A DNA stretch of 64,000 nucleotides from assembly GCF_003334355.1 (NCBI RefSeq), contig NZ_QOWP01000008.1; one strand, given 5' to 3'. Source of the stretch: Escherichia coli (GTDB lineage: Bacteria; Pseudomonadota; Gammaproteobacteria; Enterobacterales; Enterobacteriaceae). This document shows positions 39,407 through 47,087 of this stretch, piece by piece. The notes beneath the pieces were generated by a model. The model worked only from the letters and a program-made list of their open reading frames with translations. It did not search any database and was not told the origin of the DNA. Positions within the stretch are counted from its first letter, which is position 1; the number at the start of each line of letters is the position of its first letter. Position numbers and translations under genes: made by a program.

Positions 39407-40591
39407 CTAAATATCTTTAATAAACAGCAGGCAAATTATCGCAATACCCAACATCCCTATCGCCAGCCAGAACAACGCATGGTAGCTCCAGATTTCAACC
39501 ATAATTCCGTCAACAGAGCCGGCGATAATCCAGCCGACGCGTGAAGTATTTGCATATAACGTTGTCGCAGAGCCTATTTTTTCAGGCATCAGGTCCTGAA
39601 ATTAAAGCATGCCGATACCACAGAGAATACCAAGGAAGATGGCATTAAGAATTTGCAATTCCAGCTCAACCGCCGGAGTCGTCGCCATGAGTACGCTGGC
39701 GTAAAAACACATTCCACTCACGATAGCAATGAGCATTAATAGTCGCTTGCCAATACGTTTCATGTAATAGCCTGCGATTAACATCATCGGAATTTCCAGA
39801 CCGGCAGCGATACCAATCATTTCTCCAGCCAGTTTATCGGTTAGATGCAGTTCATCAATAATAAATAGCGGCATATTTATCATGTAGAGATTATTCGCCG
39901 CCCACATCATTGAACAGACCACAAAAAGTAGCCGCGTATCCCGCTTCCTGTGGGTGGAGGGTAAAATTTCTACGGGTTGGGTAACGACAGGAATATTTCT
40001 TTGTATTGATGGCAAAAACAACCAGACTATCAGCCCGCAAACAACAAATGCGATGGCAGCGGTGAGATACATCACTTTAAAACTAAATCCCATTGCCAGT
40101 TCATAAGCGAGCGGTGGCCCGATAACCCAGGCAAGCGAGATCTGAGCACGTAAAAATGTACTGAACATGACCGTCTCACGGCCTGTTCTGTCGGCGTGTT
40201 CACGGGCGAGGGCGAACATTTGCGGGTTTGCGGTGGAAGCAAAACTACTCAGAAGTACGCCCGTTGAGAGGAGAATGAAGTAGTTGCGATTCCACGCAAA
40301 AAGCGTGCAGGCCAGCACTCCAAATAAGCAACATAGCAGAATCAGTAATTTACGGTCGCCTTGTTTATCGGAGTGCCTTGCCAGAAATTGACTGACCAGA
40401 ATTCCCATAATAGCGCTACCGGTGAAGAAAAAACCTACCATTATAGGACGGGCTTTCAGTTCATCTGCGAGGAATATACTTAGGGTAGGAGTCTGAAGAG
40501 CGCCCGCAATACCCGTCAGAAAGGCGACAAGTAAAAATGCCGCGGCAGTGAGATCAAGTATTTTTGATGGAGTGGTAGCCGTTTTTTGCAT
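39407..40591 (-). pseudogene. setC: MFS sugar efflux transporter SetC with an in-frame TAA at 39602-39604 (fragments of 329 aa and 60+ aa)
   Basis: ORFs 39602..40591 and 39407..39589 are in the same frame, separated only by a TAA and 4 sense codons; 329+1+4+60 = 394 codons, the length recalled for intact SetC. Confidence 0.7.
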
Positions 40592-41227
40592 TCTTCTGAA
40601 TCACCGGGCGAAAAAATATAACTGAGTTACAAATAAGTACCAGTCGAATGAGTATTGTATTAAGAATTTTTGAGTATCGCTGATACAACCAGAAAGCAAT
40701 GCTAGCGCAATATTATAGGGCCAGCAATTGAGATTATTAGCAAAAGCATGTTAAGAATTAATTACTGAATTTATATATTAATTATAGTAAGGCAATGAGC
40801 TATTTTTGATAGTAAAAATAAAACAAGTTGATTTGATATATTAAATGAACAAATTAATCTTGATGGCAGTCTGATTATTGGTGAAGTTTATAGTCAGTTT
40901 TTTTCGCCAGCGGTTAAAGAAATAGAATAGTCGTATAAAAAAGGGTGTTCTGGGGCGAGTAAAACAACATCTTCACCTTAATGGCGATACAGTTGGCTGA
41001 GAGTCAGCAGGGGGGCAAATCACCTGCAAATAAACACGGCGCATACTGGCGTGAATATCGCGGATGCGTTCGAGGACAGAAGAACCGACAGGCGGATTCT
41101 TCAGCCGCTCATCGTCCATCACAAAACCTTAGACCAGGTATTCCTGAAGCCGATTGAATATTGAGCAGTAGAAAATATCTGGATTGACAGTATTACAAGG
41201 GGTTGGAGAACGTCAGGAGAGGCATTT

Positions 41228-41322
41228 TGGCGGAAGATCACAGGAGTCGAACCTGCCCGGGACCGCTGGCGGCCCCAACTGGATTTGAAGTCCAGCCGCC
41301 TCACCGGAGACGACGATCTTCC
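41228..41322 (-). tRNA. selC: tRNA-Sec (selenocysteine tRNA)
   Basis: 95-nt sequence whose reverse complement reads GGAAGATCGTCGTCTCCGGTGAGGCGGCTGGACTTCAAATCCAGTTGGGGCCGCCAGCGGTCCCGGGCAGGTTCGACTCCTGTGATCTTCCGCCA, with anticodon TCA and encoded CCA end. Confidence 0.95.
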
Positions 41323-41614
41323 GCGCCTCGATTGCTACATGGAGGCGGGGCGCATTATAGCTACTTCCTTGAGTTTCTACATCCCCCAGATCAGTTTTTT
41401 CCGCCTAATACACGCAGCGTATTATCACGAAAGCATTATAGTTCATATAAAACCCATATTTTACAATGATATATGAGCGGAATTAACGCTACCACGATCA
41501 CATAAAACAAGAATCATAAATTAATAACCAGATATCGGAATATTCGCTCTCACAGGGATGGTTTACAAAATGCGTTATCGGTCTCAGCACCCCTATAGCA
41601 TCAAGGAAAAGCAG

Positions 41615-42997
41615 ATGAAGAGTGAAGTGTTGTCCGTTAAAGAGAAAATTGGTTATGGCATGGGAGACGCCGCCAGCCACATTATTTTCGATAACGTAAT
41701 GTTATATATGATGTTCTTTTATACCGATATTTTTGGCATTCCTGCCGGTTTTGTCGGAACCATGTTTTTGGTCGCTCGTGCACTGGATGCGATTTCCGAT
41801 CCTTGCATGGGGTTGTTGGCCGATCGAACGCGCTCTCGCTGGGGTAAATTTCGTCCGTGGGTACTGTTTGGCGCACTGCCATTCGGGATCGTCTGTGTAC
41901 TGGCCTATAGCACGCCAGATCTCAGTATGAACGGCAAAATGATCTATGCAGCAATTACTTACACCCTACTTACCTTACTTTATACCGTCGTCAATATCCC
42001 TTACTGCGCATTGGGTGGTGTAATCACCAATGACCCGACTCAGCGTATCTCGCTGCAATCCTGGCGTTTTGTGCTGGCGACCGCGGGAGGCATGCTTTCT
42101 ACTGTTCTGATGATGCCACTGGTTAATTTAATTGGCGGTGATAATAAACCACTCGGTTTCCAGGGCGGTATCGCGGTCCTTTCCGTGGTGGCATTCATGA
42201 TGCTGGCATTTTGTTTCTTCACCACTAAAGAACGCGTTGAAGCACCACCTACAACAACGTCTATGCGGGAAGATTTACGTGATATCTGGCAAAACGACCA
42301 GTGGCGGATTGTCGGTTTACTAACCATTTTCAATATCCTGGCGGTGTGCGTACGCGGTGGGGCGATGATGTATTACGTCACATGGATTTTGGGCACGCCG
42401 GAAGTGTTTGTCGCTTTTCTCACCACTTATTGCGTGGGTAACCTGATTGGTTCCGCACTGGCAAAACCTCTGACCGACTGGAAATGTAAAGTCACTATCT
42501 TCTGGTGGACGAACGCCCTGCTGGCAGTGATTAGCCTCGCGATGTTCTTTGTTCCCATGCAGGCCAGCATCACTATGTTTGTCTTCATCTTCGTGATTGG
42601 TGTGTTGCATCAACTGGTGACACCTATCCAGTGGGTAATGATGTCCGATACCGTCGACTACGGCGAGTGGTGCAATGGTAAACGCCTGACCGGGATCAGT
42701 TTTGCTGGCACGCTGTTTGTGCTCAAACTGGGGTTGGCCTTCGGCGGCGCTCTTATCGGCTGGATGCTGGCTTATGGCGGATATGATGCGGCAGAAAAAG
42801 CGCAGAACAGCGCCACGATTAGCATCATTATTGCGCTATTCACGATTGTTCCGGCGATCTGTTATTTGCTGAGCGCGATTATCGCTAAACGCTACTACTC
42901 ACTCACGACGCACAATCTGAAAACCGTTATGGAACAGCTGGCTCAGGGTAAACGCCGTTGCCAGCAACAATTCACCTCTCAAGAAGTGCAGAACTAA
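41615..42997 (+). CDS. yicJ: GPH-family (glycoside-pentoside-hexuronide) cation symporter YicJ
   Basis: ORF 41558..42997; start at MKSEVLSVKEKIGYG gives 460 aa. Confidence 0.85.
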   Translation: MKSEVLSVKEKIGYGMGDAASHIIFDNVMLYMMFFYTDIFGIPAGFVGTMFLVARALDAISDPCMGLLADRTRSRWGKFRPWVLFGALPFGIVCVLAYSTPDLSMNGKMIYAAITYTLLTLLYTVVNIPYCALGGVITNDPTQRISLQSWRFVLATAGGMLSTVLMMPLVNLIGGDNKPLGFQGGIAVLSVVAFMMLAFCFFTTKERVEAPPTTTSMREDLRDIWQNDQWRIVGLLTIFNILAVCVRGGAMMYYVTWILGTPEVFVAFLTTYCVGNLIGSALAKPLTDWKCKVTIFWWTNALLAVISLAMFFVPMQASITMFVFIFVIGVLHQLVTPIQWVMMSDTVDYGEWCNGKRLTGISFAGTLFVLKLGLAFGGALIGWMLAYGGYDAAEKAQNSATISIIIALFTIVPAICYLLSAIIAKRYYSLTTHNLKTVMEQLAQGKRRCQQQFTSQEVQN

Positions 42998-43006
42998 GGA
43001 ACGGCA

Positions 43007-45325
43007 ATGAAAATTAGCGATGGAAACTGGTTGATTCAACCTGGCCTCAATTTGATTCACCCGCTTCAGGTGTTCGAGGTTGAACAGCAGGATAATGAAA
43101 TGGTGGTCTATGCTGCCCCCCGTGATGTGCGTGAACGTACCTGGCAGCTTGATACGCCTTTATTTACGCTGCGCTTTTTCTCCCCACAGGAAGGTATTGT
43201 CGGTGTGCGGATTGAGCATTTTCAGGGGGCGCTGAATAACGGTCCTCATTATCCGCTCAATATTTTGCAGGACGTGAAGGTCACAATCGAAAACACAGAA
43301 CGTTATGCTGAGTTTAAAAGTGGCAACTTAAGCGCGCGTGTCAGCAAAGGTGAGTTCTGGTCACTGGATTTTCTGCGCAACGGCGAACGTATTACCGGTA
43401 GTCAGGTGAAAAATAATGGCTACGTGCAGGACACGAATAATCAACGCAATTATATGTTTGAGCGGCTTGATCTTGGCGTTGGCGAAACAGTTTACGGTCT
43501 GGGAGAGCGCTTTACTGCCCTGGTGCGCAATGGCCAGACGGTAGAGACCTGGAACCGGGACGGCGGCACAAGTACTGAACAGGCGTATAAAAATATCCCG
43601 TTCTACATGACTAACCGTGGTTATGGGGTACTGGTCAATCATCCCCAGTGTGTCTCTTTTGAAGTGGGATCGGAGAAAGTCTCCAAAGTGCAGTTCAGCG
43701 TTGAGAGTGAATATCTCGAATACTTTGTTATCGACGGCCCGACGCCGAAAGCGGTACTTGATCGTTATACCCGCTTTACTGGTCGTCCGGCGCTGCCGCC
43801 CGCGTGGTCCTTCGGCCTGTGGCTAACCACTTCATTTACCACCAACTACGACGAAGCGACGGTAAACAGCTTTATCGATGGTATGGCGGAACGCAATCTG
43901 CCGCTGCATGTTTTCCACTTTGACTGTTTCTGGATGAAAGCCTTCCAGTGGTGCGATTTTGAGTGGGACCCGCTGACTTTCCCTGACCCGGAAGGGATGA
44001 TCCGCCGCCTGAAAGCGAAAGGGCTGAAAATCTGCGTCTGGATTAACCCCTATATCGGTCAAAAATCCCCCGTCTTTAAAGAGTTACAAGAGAAAGGCTA
44101 TTTACTCAAACGCCCGGACGGTTCGCTATGGCAGTGGGATAAATGGCAGCCAGGTCTGGCGATTTATGACTTTACCAATCCGGATGCCTGCAAATGGTAC
44201 GCCGACAAACTGAAAGGTCTGGTCGCGATGGGCGTTGATTGCTTTAAGACCGACTTTGGCGAACGTATCCCAACTGATGTTCAGTGGTTTGACGGTTCCG
44301 ATCCGCAGAAAATGCATAACCATTATGCGTACATCTACAACGAACTGGTGTGGAACGTGCTCAAGGACACCGTTGGTGAGGAAGAAGCTGTCTTGTTTGC
44401 CCGCTCGGCCTCCGTCGGTGCGCAGAAATTCCCGGTACACTGGGGTGGCGATTGTTACGCTAACTACGAATCAATGGCGGAAAGCCTGCGCGGTGGTTTG
44501 TCTATTGGCCTTTCAGGTTTTGGCTTCTGGAGCCACGATATCGGCGGCTTTGAAAATACCGCTCCGGCGCACGTTTACAAACGCTGGTGCGCGTTTGGTT
44601 TGCTCTCCAGCCATAGCCGTTTACACGGTAGCAAATCTTATCGTGTGCCGTGGGCCTACGATGATGAGTCCTGTGATGTGGTGCGCTTCTTCACGCAACT
44701 GAAATGCCGCATGATGCCGTATCTGTATCGTGAAGCTGCGCGTGCGAACGCGCGGGGTACGCCGATGATGCGGGCCATGATGATGGAGTTCCCGGACGAT
44801 CCGGCTTGTGATTACCTTGACCGTCAATACATGTTAGGCGACAACGTGATGGTTGCGCCGGTGTTCACTGAAGCGGGCGATGTGCAGTTCTACCTGCCGG
44901 AAGGTCGCTGGACACACCTGTGGCACAACGATGAACTCGACGGTAGTCGCTGGCATAAACAGCAGCACGGCTTCCTGAGTCTGCCCGTTTATGTGCGTGA
45001 TAACACTCTACTGGCGCTGGGCAACAACGATCAACGTCCCGATTACGTGTGGCACGAAGGCACGGCATTCCACCTCTTTAATCTGCAAGACGGGCATGAA
45101 GCCGTCTGTGAAGTGCCCGCTGCTGACGGATCGGTGATCTTTACTTTAAAAGCAGCACGTACTGGCAACACGATTACTGTGACTGGTGCGGGCGAGGCGA
45201 AGAACTGGACACTGTGCCTGCGCAATGTTGTGAAAGTAAATGGTCTGCAAGACGGTTCGCAGGCTGAAAGTGAGCAGGGGCTGGTGGTGAAGCCTCAAGG
45301 GAATGCGCTGACAATTACGTTGTAA
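43007..45325 (+). CDS. yicI: Alpha-xylosidase (GH31)
   Basis: 772-aa ORF with GH31 catalytic region (WINPYI ... KTDFGE). Confidence 0.9.
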
Positions 45326-45339
45326 TCTATTGATGGAAT

Positions 45340-45366
45340 GCCGGGTACGTCTGAGTCGTACCCGGC
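45340..45366. terminator. Hairpin between convergent yicI and yicH
   Basis: gccgggtacg-tctgagt-cgtacccggc perfect 10-bp stem. Confidence 0.65.
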
Positions 45367-45377
45367 GAGATTGATGT

Positions 45378-47087
45378 TTACCGCACCGGCTCCGTCGATG
45401 TAACTTCACCGCTGGAAACGATGCCAGCATTCATGGTTTGAGTCACTTGCTGCTTTGCGGCGTTCACGGCATGCAATTGCCCGCTAACCGTAGGTTTCAG
45501 CGGGGCATTGGCCTGAATATCTCCACTGGCGGTAAGCTGAATATTGCCGTCGCCAGTCAACGGTAATTCAGGCCATCCCCATTGTTGCAAAATATTCACC
45601 GGCACACCGCGTCCATTCAGGCTGATATGGGTCTGACGTTGTGGCGTTTGTGAAACACTGGCAGTGGCTTCCAGAATGCCTTTTTCAGTAAATGCACTCA
45701 GTTCGCTGATATTCACCGTGCTGCTGTTGGCGGTCAGCGCCAGCGACGGGCGACGAACATCAACACGATTGAATGTCGCGGCGGCGGCATTCAGATTCGC
45801 CGAGCCACTCCAGACGCCCCATTTATGATCGGTAACCAGCGTCAGGTTGGCACCGTAACCATCGAGCGTGGTGAGCTGCCACGGGAAGTCAGGGTCGATA
45901 TCAATGATCAGATTGCGGCTGGCGCTAAATCTCTTCAGTTGCAGGCTGTTTAACCAACCGGGTGTCGTTTCCATCCACAACTGTTGCCAGTTTTTCGGCA
46001 AGGTATATTCCAGCCCGGCAATTGCCGCATCATCAAGGATCAACGTTTTCCCGTCACGCAGCCAGTTCCCTGACGTTCTGACCATACCCCCTTCCCAGCG
46101 GCTGGTGAACTGGCGCAGCGCTACGCCCTGCGGGGAAAATTCCGCGTTTATAATCGGGTCAAATAAATGCAGCGAACCATAAATGAACTCGCTAGCGTTC
46201 ATCGACAGTTTGCCTTCTTGTGTCTGCCAGTCATCTTTACTGAAGGTCATGTTGCGCAAGCTGAGATCGAGGTCGGTCACCGCCCAGTCCGGACCTTGCA
46301 AACGAGCATCGATCACTTCCAGGCGACCAATCTGCAACGACGGGACAGAGCGTAATGGCGCAAAGAAGTCGGTTAGCGATTTTTCGCTTTGTAGACGGAT
46401 ATCCGCCATGCGCAGGTTTTCCACTTGCCAGCTGCCGTCGGCGTTACGCTGCGCGTTTCCGGTTAATGTCCCGCGCGCGATGTCGGCACCCAGGTTAGTC
46501 AGCGTAACGCGATCGTTATCAATACTGCCTTCAATCAGTACATTGGTGGCAGGAACATCATTGAGCGAAAGCGATCCGGCACTAAACTGAATCTGCGCCT
46601 TCGTACCCAGCACTTTACCGGCTTTTGGTGACCACGGAACTACGCCGCCATTTACCCGCTGCGCGCTCAGTTTCCATTCGCTATTCGGGCTATTAAACGC
46701 CATATCACGCAGTTGCAGACGATCGGCTTTGAACGGTAGCGGCGCGGTCTGGTCGGTGAGATTCAGCGTCCCGTTTTCCAGCAGGATGGTATCGACATGG
46801 CGTGGTTCGGTCAGTTGCCGACTGCTTAGCGCAATGTCGACACTTTTGGCCACCAGGGTCGCGGGCTGGCCATCACGACCAAACGTGACGTTCTCCAGCA
46901 CGATATGAGATGGCGCGGAAAAACGGTGATCCATCGCCCCGAAGGCCAGATGATAGTCGCTATTCTCGGAAACCCATGCGCTGATATGTTCTGCTCCCCA
47001 GCGGGTTTGCAGAAGAAAATAGAGGCCAGCGATCGCCACTAACAGAGCGATGAGAATGTAGAGAAGCAGCTTCCCAATAAATTTCAT
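45378..47087 (-). CDS. yicH: AsmA-family protein YicH
   Basis: ORF 45378..47111; start at MKFIGKLLLYILIALL gives 569 aa; N-terminal TM anchor. Confidence 0.85.
   Translation of the reverse strand: MKFIGKLLLYILIALLVAIAGLYFLLQTRWGAEHISAWVSENSDYHLAFGAMDHRFSAPSHIVLENVTFGRDGQPATLVAKSVDIALSSRQLTEPRHVDTILLENGTLNLTDQTAPLPFKADRLQLRDMAFNSPNSEWKLSAQRVNGGVVPWSPKAGKVLGTKAQIQFSAGSLSLNDVPATNVLIEGSIDNDRVTLTNLGADIARGTLTGNAQRNADGSWQVENLRMADIRLQSEKSLTDFFAPLRSVPSLQIGRLEVIDARLQGPDWAVTDLDLSLRNMTFSKDDWQTQEGKLSMNASEFIYGSLHLFDPIINAEFSPQGVALRQFTSRWEGGMVRTSGNWLRDGKTLILDDAAIAGLEYTLPKNWQQLWMETTPGWLNSLQLKRFSASRNLIIDIDPDFPWQLTTLDGYGANLTLVTDHKWGVWSGSANLNAAAATFNRVDVRRPSLALTANSSTVNISELSAFTEKGILEATASVSQTPQRQTHISLNGRGVPVNILQQWGWPELPLTGDGNIQLTASGDIQANAPLKPTVSGQLHAVNAAKQQVTQTMNAGIVSSGEVTSTEPVR

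Follow-up and report, generated by a model that had tools for sequence, protein, structure and literature searches.

What does the gene pair yicJ-yicI do for Escherichia coli, and how is its expression arranged? The question is raised by a 64-kb stretch of the E. coli chromosome (the window; all coordinates given here are window positions), in which the initial annotation had recognised a gene for a symporter of the GPH family, followed after 9 bp by a gene for an alpha-xylosidase of family GH31 and then by a strong hairpin, and had read these as a two-gene operon for the uptake and hydrolysis of alpha-xylosides. Our analysis agrees with this reading: the locus is the already characterised yicJI operon of the E. 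coli core genome, the essentials of which are already known and annotated and the enzyme of which has been crystallised. What is new here is the comparative support for the operon, the independent re-derivation of an XylR-like operator and the observation that the hairpin departs from a textbook terminator.

In the mechanism that we propose, YicJ, a predicted 12-helix cation symporter of the GPH family, would import small alpha-xylosides, the likeliest of which are isoprimeverose (alpha-Xyl-1,6-Glc) and short xyloglucan oligosaccharides, and YicI, a retaining GH31 alpha-xylosidase, would cleave these in the cytoplasm to D-xylose and either glucose or an oligosaccharide. Both genes would be carried on one mRNA that ends at or near the hairpin, 15 nt past the yicI stop codon. 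The main promoter would probably depend on an activator that acts via XylR-like operators, and the xylose freed by YicI would reinforce yicJI expression. We hold this overall picture, of an operon for xyloside import and hydrolysis under XylR-like control with its 3' end near the hairpin, with considerable confidence. A wider proposal, to which we give even chances, is that yicJI is a silent scavenging operon, activated by xylose and XylR and kept throughout Enterobacterales, for isoprimeverose coming from xyloglucan-degrading gut bacteria.

The identities and the order of the two genes, on which the list of open reading frames (ORFs), the NCBIfam equivalogs, the RefSeq annotation and the matches in the PDB agree, are practically certain. 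Over a stretch of 4.2 kb, the DNA shows 100% identity to many E. coli chromosomes, where RefSeq annotates tRNA-Sec, yicJ, yicI and yicH, and the pair was found in 5425 of the 5426 complete E. coli genomes. With K-12 MG1655, where the same locus is b3657-b3656, the window is collinear (36 single-nucleotide polymorphisms in 10.5 kb) and shares the neighbours selC and yicH; YicJ and YicI are both 100% identical to the K-12 proteins, the differences being only synonymous or flanking. The YicI encoded here is thus the crystallised and assayed enzyme. In the K-12 annotation, the products are named 'putative xyloside transporter YicJ' and 'alpha-D-xyloside xylohydrolase' (YicI). An alternative start of yicJ at 41558, which would give an in-frame ORF of 479 amino acids (aa), was considered and rejected. 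As the NCBIfam equivalog aligns over positions 1-460 of 460 from 41615, and as the AAGGA of the Shine-Dalgarno sequence is kept across genera while the region 5' of 41615 is not kept in frame, 41615 should be taken as the real start. The pair is occasionally disrupted within the species: in E. coli B1.H1.1, yicI is annotated as an incomplete pseudogene with the N-terminus missing.

The enzyme is the better defined of the two products. YicI scores 1433 bits against the NCBIfam alpha-xylosidase equivalog NF007940 (cut-off 606), contains the Pfam domains PF13802, PF01055 and PF21365 (the GH31 TIM-barrel, N-terminal mutarotase-like and C-terminal domains) and matches the PDB entries 1WE5, 1XSI and 2F2H, each of which holds six chains, over its full length. 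The catalytic nucleophile Asp416 is found in the motif KTDFGE and the acid/base Asp482 in WGGDCY, and the xylosidase-specific residues Cys307 and Phe308 are present as well. D482A has been described in the literature as an acid/base mutant. Alpha-xylosidase activity of YicI (Okuyama 2004) and its action on xyloglucan oligosaccharides (Carneiro 2022) are both reported by way of citing literature. By its family matches and active-site motifs, YicI is assigned as a cytoplasmic GH31 alpha-xylosidase. The initial annotation had called the physiological substrate not well defined; for YicI this does not hold, as its in-vitro substrates are known, whereas for the substrate transported by YicJ and for the in-vivo inducer the statement stands.

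The gap between yicJ and yicI is exactly 9 bp (TAAggaacggcaATG), as had been stated, and the AAGGAA Shine-Dalgarno sequence of yicI overlaps the stop codon of yicJ. This short gap and the overlapping ribosome-binding site point to the transcription of yicJ and yicI as one mRNA. Those who published the operon reportedly obtained a reverse-transcription PCR product spanning the yicJ-yicI junction. The pair is the subject, by its title, of Reperant 2011 ('The yicJI metabolic operon...'), to which a citing paper ascribes a fitness defect of a delta-yicJI mutant. The terminator-like match near 42973-42988 (- strand) is no more than chance would give, and the terminator-like and promoter-like matches inside yicJ and yicI are likewise at chance level.

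To place the operon in a wider context, we carried out a comparative scan with YicI, taking one genome per species, which yielded 80 loci, 19 of them from Enterobacterales and about 60 from more distant bacteria. Directly upstream of yicI, a yicJ orthologue (73-90% identity) is present in 18 of the 19 Enterobacterales loci, including those of Citrobacter, Enterobacter, Kluyvera, Leclercia, Cedecea, Mangrovibacter, Rahnella, Hafnia and others. The junction of stop codon, Shine-Dalgarno sequence and ATG is kept in the 15 loci closest to E. coli; the junctions of Cedecea, Rahnella and Hafnia are overlapping or differently spaced. The one exception to the pairing is a metagenome-assembled genome of Pseudocitrobacter (L009), in which yicJ is mostly deleted (L009 5600-6003). 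This genome still has the XylR-like block upstream and the yicJ-yicI junction, such that yicI alone is fused to the promoter region of the operon, although the deletion could be an assembly artefact. Among the roughly 60 non-enterobacterial loci, none has a GPH gene within 6 kb of the YicI homologue, and the pairing as a general trait of YicI-type enzymes was thus rejected. With 18 of 19 loci in the one group and none in the other, the pairing of transporter and enzyme is a trait of the Enterobacterales lineage. The distant homologues (55-66% identity; Paenibacillus, other Bacillota, Chloroflexota and others, loci L022-L086) most commonly have a divergent AraC-family regulator as their neighbour (27 of 60 loci), followed by sugar ABC-transporter permeases, a YesM-like histidine kinase and a GH3 enzyme. 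An operon of two genes for alpha-xyloside uptake and hydrolysis, as initially annotated, fits the annotation, the literature and this adjacency. The features discussed here and below are listed in Table 1.

Table 1 Features of the yicJI locus and its surroundings, in window coordinates.
Feature	Position	Strand	Details	Basis
sigma-E (sigma-24) promoter assigned to yicJ/yicI	40846-40880	+	start ~40880	
selC (tRNA-Sec)	41228-41322	-		
selC promoter	41354-41359	-	TATAAT, invariant	14-genus alignment
GATCACA box	41496-41502	+	TCACA invariant in 14 genera	
direct repeat 1	41508-41523	+	CAAGAATCATAAATTA; 21 bp from repeat 2	best-conserved spacer block
direct repeat 2	41529-41544	+	CAGATATCGGAATATT	best-conserved spacer block
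candidate -10 hexamer	41564-41569	+	TACAAA; inside the GATGGTTTACAA block	
yicJ Shine-Dalgarno sequence	41603-41609	+	AAGGAAA; AAGGA kept across genera	
yicJ	41615-42997	+	ATG 41615, stop TAA 42995-42997, 460 aa	ORF list and sequence
yicJ stop and 9-bp spacer with yicI Shine-Dalgarno sequence	42995-43006	+	TAAGGAACGGCA	
yicI	43007-45325	+	ATG 43007, stop 45323-45325, 772 aa	ORF list and sequence
hairpin	45340-45366	.	10-bp G+C-rich stem, 7-nt loop; GCCGGGTACG/loop/CGTACCCGGC	

The strong hairpin that had been noted 3' of yicI is there, with a perfect stem and a folding energy of -19.4 kcal/mol alone and -20.9 kcal/mol for the centroid in context. It is one of 18 inverted repeats of its class in the 64 kb and lies within the 52 bp that separate the stop of yicI (45325) from the convergent stop of yicH (45378, - strand). 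Two results should be considered as counting against a simple terminator at the end of yicJI: neither strand has a U-tract after the stem (the letters that come next are GAGATTGATGTTT on the + strand and ATTCCATCAATAG on the - strand), and the hairpin was not listed by the terminator scan. For these reasons, the hairpin falls outside the class of canonical intrinsic terminators. Its probable role is to define the 3' end of the yicJI mRNA or to stabilise it, and we infer that termination may take place at the hairpin.

The comparison of strains provides a further handle on this element. No change in the hairpin is seen across three further E. coli strains without the frz island, a 7-kb insertion that is absent here and lies directly after the hairpin in ATCC 11775 (L087 9651-16931), where its genes encode a BglG-type antiterminator, fructose-type phosphotransferase system components IIA, IIB and IIC, two aldolases, a ROK protein and a sugar isomerase. 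In ATCC 11775, the sole strain with the island that we examined, the hairpin stays with yicI and differs by one compensatory exchange of a G-C for an A-T pair. As the hairpin is kept with yicI, compensatory pair included, despite the frz insertion, it is tied to the 3' end of yicJI rather than to yicH. In 3818 of the 5426 genomes, yicI and yicH are contiguous, as here, while about 1600 of the 5426 show the split match that the frz island yields in ATCC 11775. Other genera carry non-homologous stem-loops 3' of yicI in most loci (two, L013 and L029, are without a convincing stem-loop), and those of Rahnella, Hafnia and Mangrovibacter at this position are canonical terminators, T-runs included. 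ORFs of sizes matching those of the frz genes follow yicI in Citrobacter (L007, L041) and Mangrovibacter (L017).

Of all the explanations that compete with parts of our picture, the one that survives best concerns this hairpin, which might not be the terminator of yicJI but a bidirectional or yicH-related element, an element of a repeat type, or a landmark of frz insertion. Besides the missing U-tract, the shuffle z-score favours the - strand (-3.0, compared to -1.9 for the + strand), the frz island would stand right after the hairpin in the some 1600 genomes with the split match, and repeats resembling repetitive extragenic palindromic elements occupy the position in some other genera. Set against this are the frz strain, in which the hairpin and its compensatory pair remain with yicI although yicH is 7 kb away, and the T-run terminators at the equivalent place in Rahnella, Hafnia and Mangrovibacter. 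We consider such an explanation possible but doubtful, and prefer a hairpin that marks the 3' end of the yicJI mRNA.

For the 5' end, we aligned the spacer between selC and yicJ from 14 genera. selC is located about 290 bp upstream of yicJ, in divergent orientation, in nearly all Enterobacteriaceae, and the spacer has two conserved parts, namely, the selC promoter and a block upstream of yicJ. Within this block, the TCACA box and the two direct repeats lie 72-107 nt upstream of the yicJ ATG. After repeat 2, a variable segment of about 12-15 nt leads to a second conserved block, GATGGTTTACAA (41557-41568), in the alignment of which T41562, T41564, A41565, A41567 and A41568 are invariant. We infer from this position that TACAAA is a candidate for the -10 hexamer of yicJ; the distance from repeat 2 to TACAAA is about 34-35 nt, compared to about 33-34 nt from repeat 2 of xylF to TAAAAT, as read by eye. 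The GATCACA box may serve as a half-site for CRP or belong, as its distal part, to the proposed activator site. A full CRP site was also looked for, and only matches with three mismatches, at 41487 and 41571, were found, which is at chance level (198 found versus 211 expected), and the candidate was dropped.

The repeats resemble the operators of the xylose genes. The consensus of the yicJ repeats, CAAGAATCGTAAT, is nearly the same as repeat 1 of xylF, CAAAAATCGTAAT, and the 21-bp spacing is common to both. With a XylR weight matrix built only from the four half-sites of K-12 xylA and xylF, the best tandem match is this very block in all 14 genera, with 0-1 of 200 shuffles reaching the score. 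The matrix also picks the block in Rahnella, Hafnia and Kluyvera, at 18-26 bits, including Rahnella, where selC is not nearby and where the repeats resemble the xylA sites (26 bits). A parallel is provided by yagG of K-12, the product of which belongs to the closest named paralogue family of YicJ (495 bits). Its upstream region (L005 370-598) shows the arrangement of yicJ at a comparable distance to the start codon, with a GTCACA box and then, 113 nt ahead of the ATG, a tandem XylR-like repeat, and this repeat scores 17.6 bits, with none of 200 shuffles reaching the score. Both transporters had been computationally predicted to be xyloside transporters under XylR (Laikova 2001, as cited in PMC2996990). 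We lean towards XylR control of yicJI through this putative operator, although with clear reserve.

The reserve stems from several results that pull the other way and should be considered together. The E. coli site reaches only 14-16 bits, compared to 36 for the training sites, with a matrix of four sites, and ranks third among all positions of the window on both strands; the two higher matches fall inside ORFs. Operators of AraC-type regulators are all A/T-rich direct repeats, so that another regulator could bind. Our literature search found no paper that ties yicI to XylR experimentally. A scan with the sigma-70 consensus gave no match between selC and yicJ, the sole match being at 40751-40779. 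In addition, a peak of RNA polymerase and H-NS in the spacer was reported from genomic SELEX (systematic evolution of ligands by exponential enrichment; Shimada 2014). The hexamers predicted there, at 41422-41467, TTATCA-18-TATAAA on the + strand and TTGTAA/TATAAT on the - strand, are present here, and as they lie in a stretch that is not conserved between genera, they were not adopted as the main promoter.

These points leave room for a different regulator, by which the direct repeats would bind an AraC-family or other non-XylR activator, or would respond to an alpha-xyloside, such that the operon would stand outside the xylose regulon. The four-site matrix and the modest E. coli score are compatible with this, as is the literature search, and the divergent AraC-family regulator beside 27 of 60 distant homologues indicates that a dedicated regulator is common for such enzymes. 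No regulator gene, however, adjoins the pair in any Enterobacterales locus, and the match of the consensus repeat to xylF repeat 1 at equal spacing, the xylA-like repeats of Rahnella and the earlier prediction, as far as it is relayed, all point to XylR. We thus regard a non-XylR regulator as unlikely, and retain XylR as the preferred candidate.

Two further observations were made in the upstream region. A conserved block, TCGGTCTCAG / ACCGGTCTCAG (41578-41587), lies downstream of the candidate -10 hexamer in the presumed 5' leader of yicJ, and could correspond to the first transcribed nucleotides, to an operator or to an RNA element. A permissive Rfam search of 40500-46000 returned only tRNA-Sec, with no known riboswitch or small RNA in the leader or at the hairpin. 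In Rahnella, where selC is not beside yicJ, the gene upstream on the same strand is a 357-aa ORF without an NCBIfam match (L018 3327-4400, L026 3275-4348).

The transporter can be assigned to a family with ease. YicJ scores 1056 bits against the NCBIfam equivalog NF008526 (cut-off 836) and 520 bits against TIGR00792 (cut-off 231), which places it in the GPH family (TC 2.A.2), and PF13347 (MFS_2) is recorded for all of its close homologues. The structural prototype of GPH symporters is the melibiose:Na+ symporter MelB, structures of which match YicJ at 1e-55 over residues 6-446; the melAB system differs from yicJI in gene order and in the family of its enzyme, an alpha-galactosidase. In MelB, D55 and D59 of helix II form part of the cation site, and K18/D19 and D124 take part in sugar binding. 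The cation-site residues align with D58 and D62 of YicJ and are conserved, whereas the sugar-site positions align with S21/H22 and N127 and differ. As these positions differ, the substrate of YicJ is not readable from homology, which has to be weighed against our reading of it, together with a literature search that found no YicJ transport assay and no E. coli growth substrate tied to the pair. That YicJ is a putative importer of alpha-xylosides is nonetheless probable.

The comparison with known systems bears directly on this assignment. In Lactobacillus pentosus, xylP-xylQ reportedly encodes an isoprimeverose:cation symporter and a GH31 alpha-xylosidase. By description, this is likewise a GPH gene directly upstream of a GH31 alpha-xylosidase gene that is linked to the xylose regulon. 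The two differ in regulation, as control in L. pentosus is by a ROK-type XylR repressor, whereas the XylR of enteric bacteria, proposed here for yicJI, is an activator of AraC/LacI-hybrid type. XylQ was reported to be 46% identical to a Thermotoga enzyme that is itself 51% identical to YicI. As the pairing was not found in intermediate lineages, the xylP-xylQ and yicJI pairings may have arisen independently. Within E. coli, yihO/yihP-yihQ shares the logic of a GPH importer with a cytoplasmic GH31 hydrolase, and YihQ structures match YicI at about 1e-43; it differs in acting on sulfoquinovosides (YihQ is a sulfoquinovosidase), in its regulator and in its larger locus. The yagG-yagH pair resembles yicJI in its transporter and upstream region but differs in that the partner YagH is a putative beta-xylosidase from another glycosidase family, in that it is borne on the CP4-6 prophage and not in the core genome, and in that K-12 annotates YagG as a putative D-xylonate transporter.

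This last annotation, given to the closest named relative of YicJ, suggests that YicJ might carry some other substrate (another pentoside, a glucuronide-like compound or a xylonate-type acid) and that its adjacency to yicI reflects shared regulation, for which the altered sugar-site residues and the restriction of the GPH pairing to Enterobacterales in the 80 loci sampled could also be cited. We find this rather improbable, as the yicJ-yicI junction is tight and kept across the families of Enterobacterales, as the analogous pair of L. pentosus handles isoprimeverose and as K-12 annotates YicJ as a putative xyloside transporter. Import of alpha-xylosides is thus kept as the likely function of YicJ.

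A further alternative sets aside xyloside catabolism altogether and sees in yicJI mainly a function in envelope stress (sigma-E) or general fitness, with transcription starting at about 40880 and running through selC. The sigma-E consensus is GGAACTT-N16-TCAAA, and the window holds a candidate -35 element TGAACAA (40846-40852) and, after 17 nt, a candidate -10 element TCTGA (40870-40874) that ends 6 nt before the start. We mapped this start to the window via the K-12 coordinates of selC and the collinearity with K-12. The Reg-Seq study, in the portion dealing with 'yicI', used for it the sigma-E start of Rhodius 2005 at K-12 position 3,836,664, and yicJ is among the sigma-E promoters in PMC3326320. 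The motifs in the window and these assignments should be considered as evidence for the sigma-E role, as should the delta-yicJI phenotype, reported, as far as the account of it goes, on lysogeny broth with no xyloside supplied. Upstream transcription can moreover reach yicJ: the locus of enterocyte effacement (LEE), an island activated by Ler, raises yicJ 2-4 fold in enteropathogenic E. coli, and read-through from upstream into yicJ is plausible.

The start, a point to be held against the proximal promoter that we favour, precedes the yicJ ATG by 735 nt, with selC lying between the two. A promoter so distal is also the weakness of the sigma-E proposal. ATCC 8739 is identical across yicJI and carries a P4-like element with an integrase at selC, so that islands put kilobases between promoter and gene; with the start beyond the island-insertion point at selC, a link from it to yicJ is impossible in strains like ATCC 8739. 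Conservation between genera is also seen for the proximal block but not for the sequence upstream of selC, and the enzyme is a specific alpha-xylosidase. We thus consider a mainly sigma-E function improbable, more so than a different substrate of YicJ. Much less probable still is that the sigma-E leader acts as an antisense of selC, by which envelope stress would raise yicJI and interfere with tRNA-Sec, an arrangement that would be broken in strains with an island at selC.

That yicJ and yicI are transcribed independently is hardly credible, as nothing specific speaks in its favour, whereas the gap of 9 bp and a Shine-Dalgarno sequence that overlaps the stop, the conservation of this junction, the publication of the pair as an operon, at least by title, and the yicI of Pseudocitrobacter, fused alone to the yicJ upstream region, all speak against it.

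Some features of the neighbourhood are recorded here in their own right. A transcript from about 40880 would cross the whole of selC in antisense before reaching yicJ. The island site at selC (40592-41227) is empty here, as in K-12, and holds only a short remnant of a RhuM-family pseudogene (yicT in K-12), beside selC at about 40988-41149. Further upstream, setC (39407-40591, - strand) differs from K-12 in having a premature in-frame stop at 39602-39604 (TAT to TAA, ...GIGML*FQDL...), which splits the gene into ORFs of 329 and 60 aa. The closest complete E. coli genome has A instead of T at 39602 and an intact setC of 394 aa is annotated there; none of the complete genomes of the collection matches this stretch at 100%.

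As a finding in itself, yicJI carries little weight, as the locus is annotated, its enzyme crystallised and the operon published. It is nonetheless a useful landmark, flanked as it is by two island-insertion sites, namely, selC and the gap between yicI and yicH that receives the frz island. If the proposed control by XylR is true, the scavenging of alpha-xylosides would join the xylose regulon of enteric bacteria, and this would suggest that these bacteria cross-feed on the products of xyloglucan breakdown in the gut.

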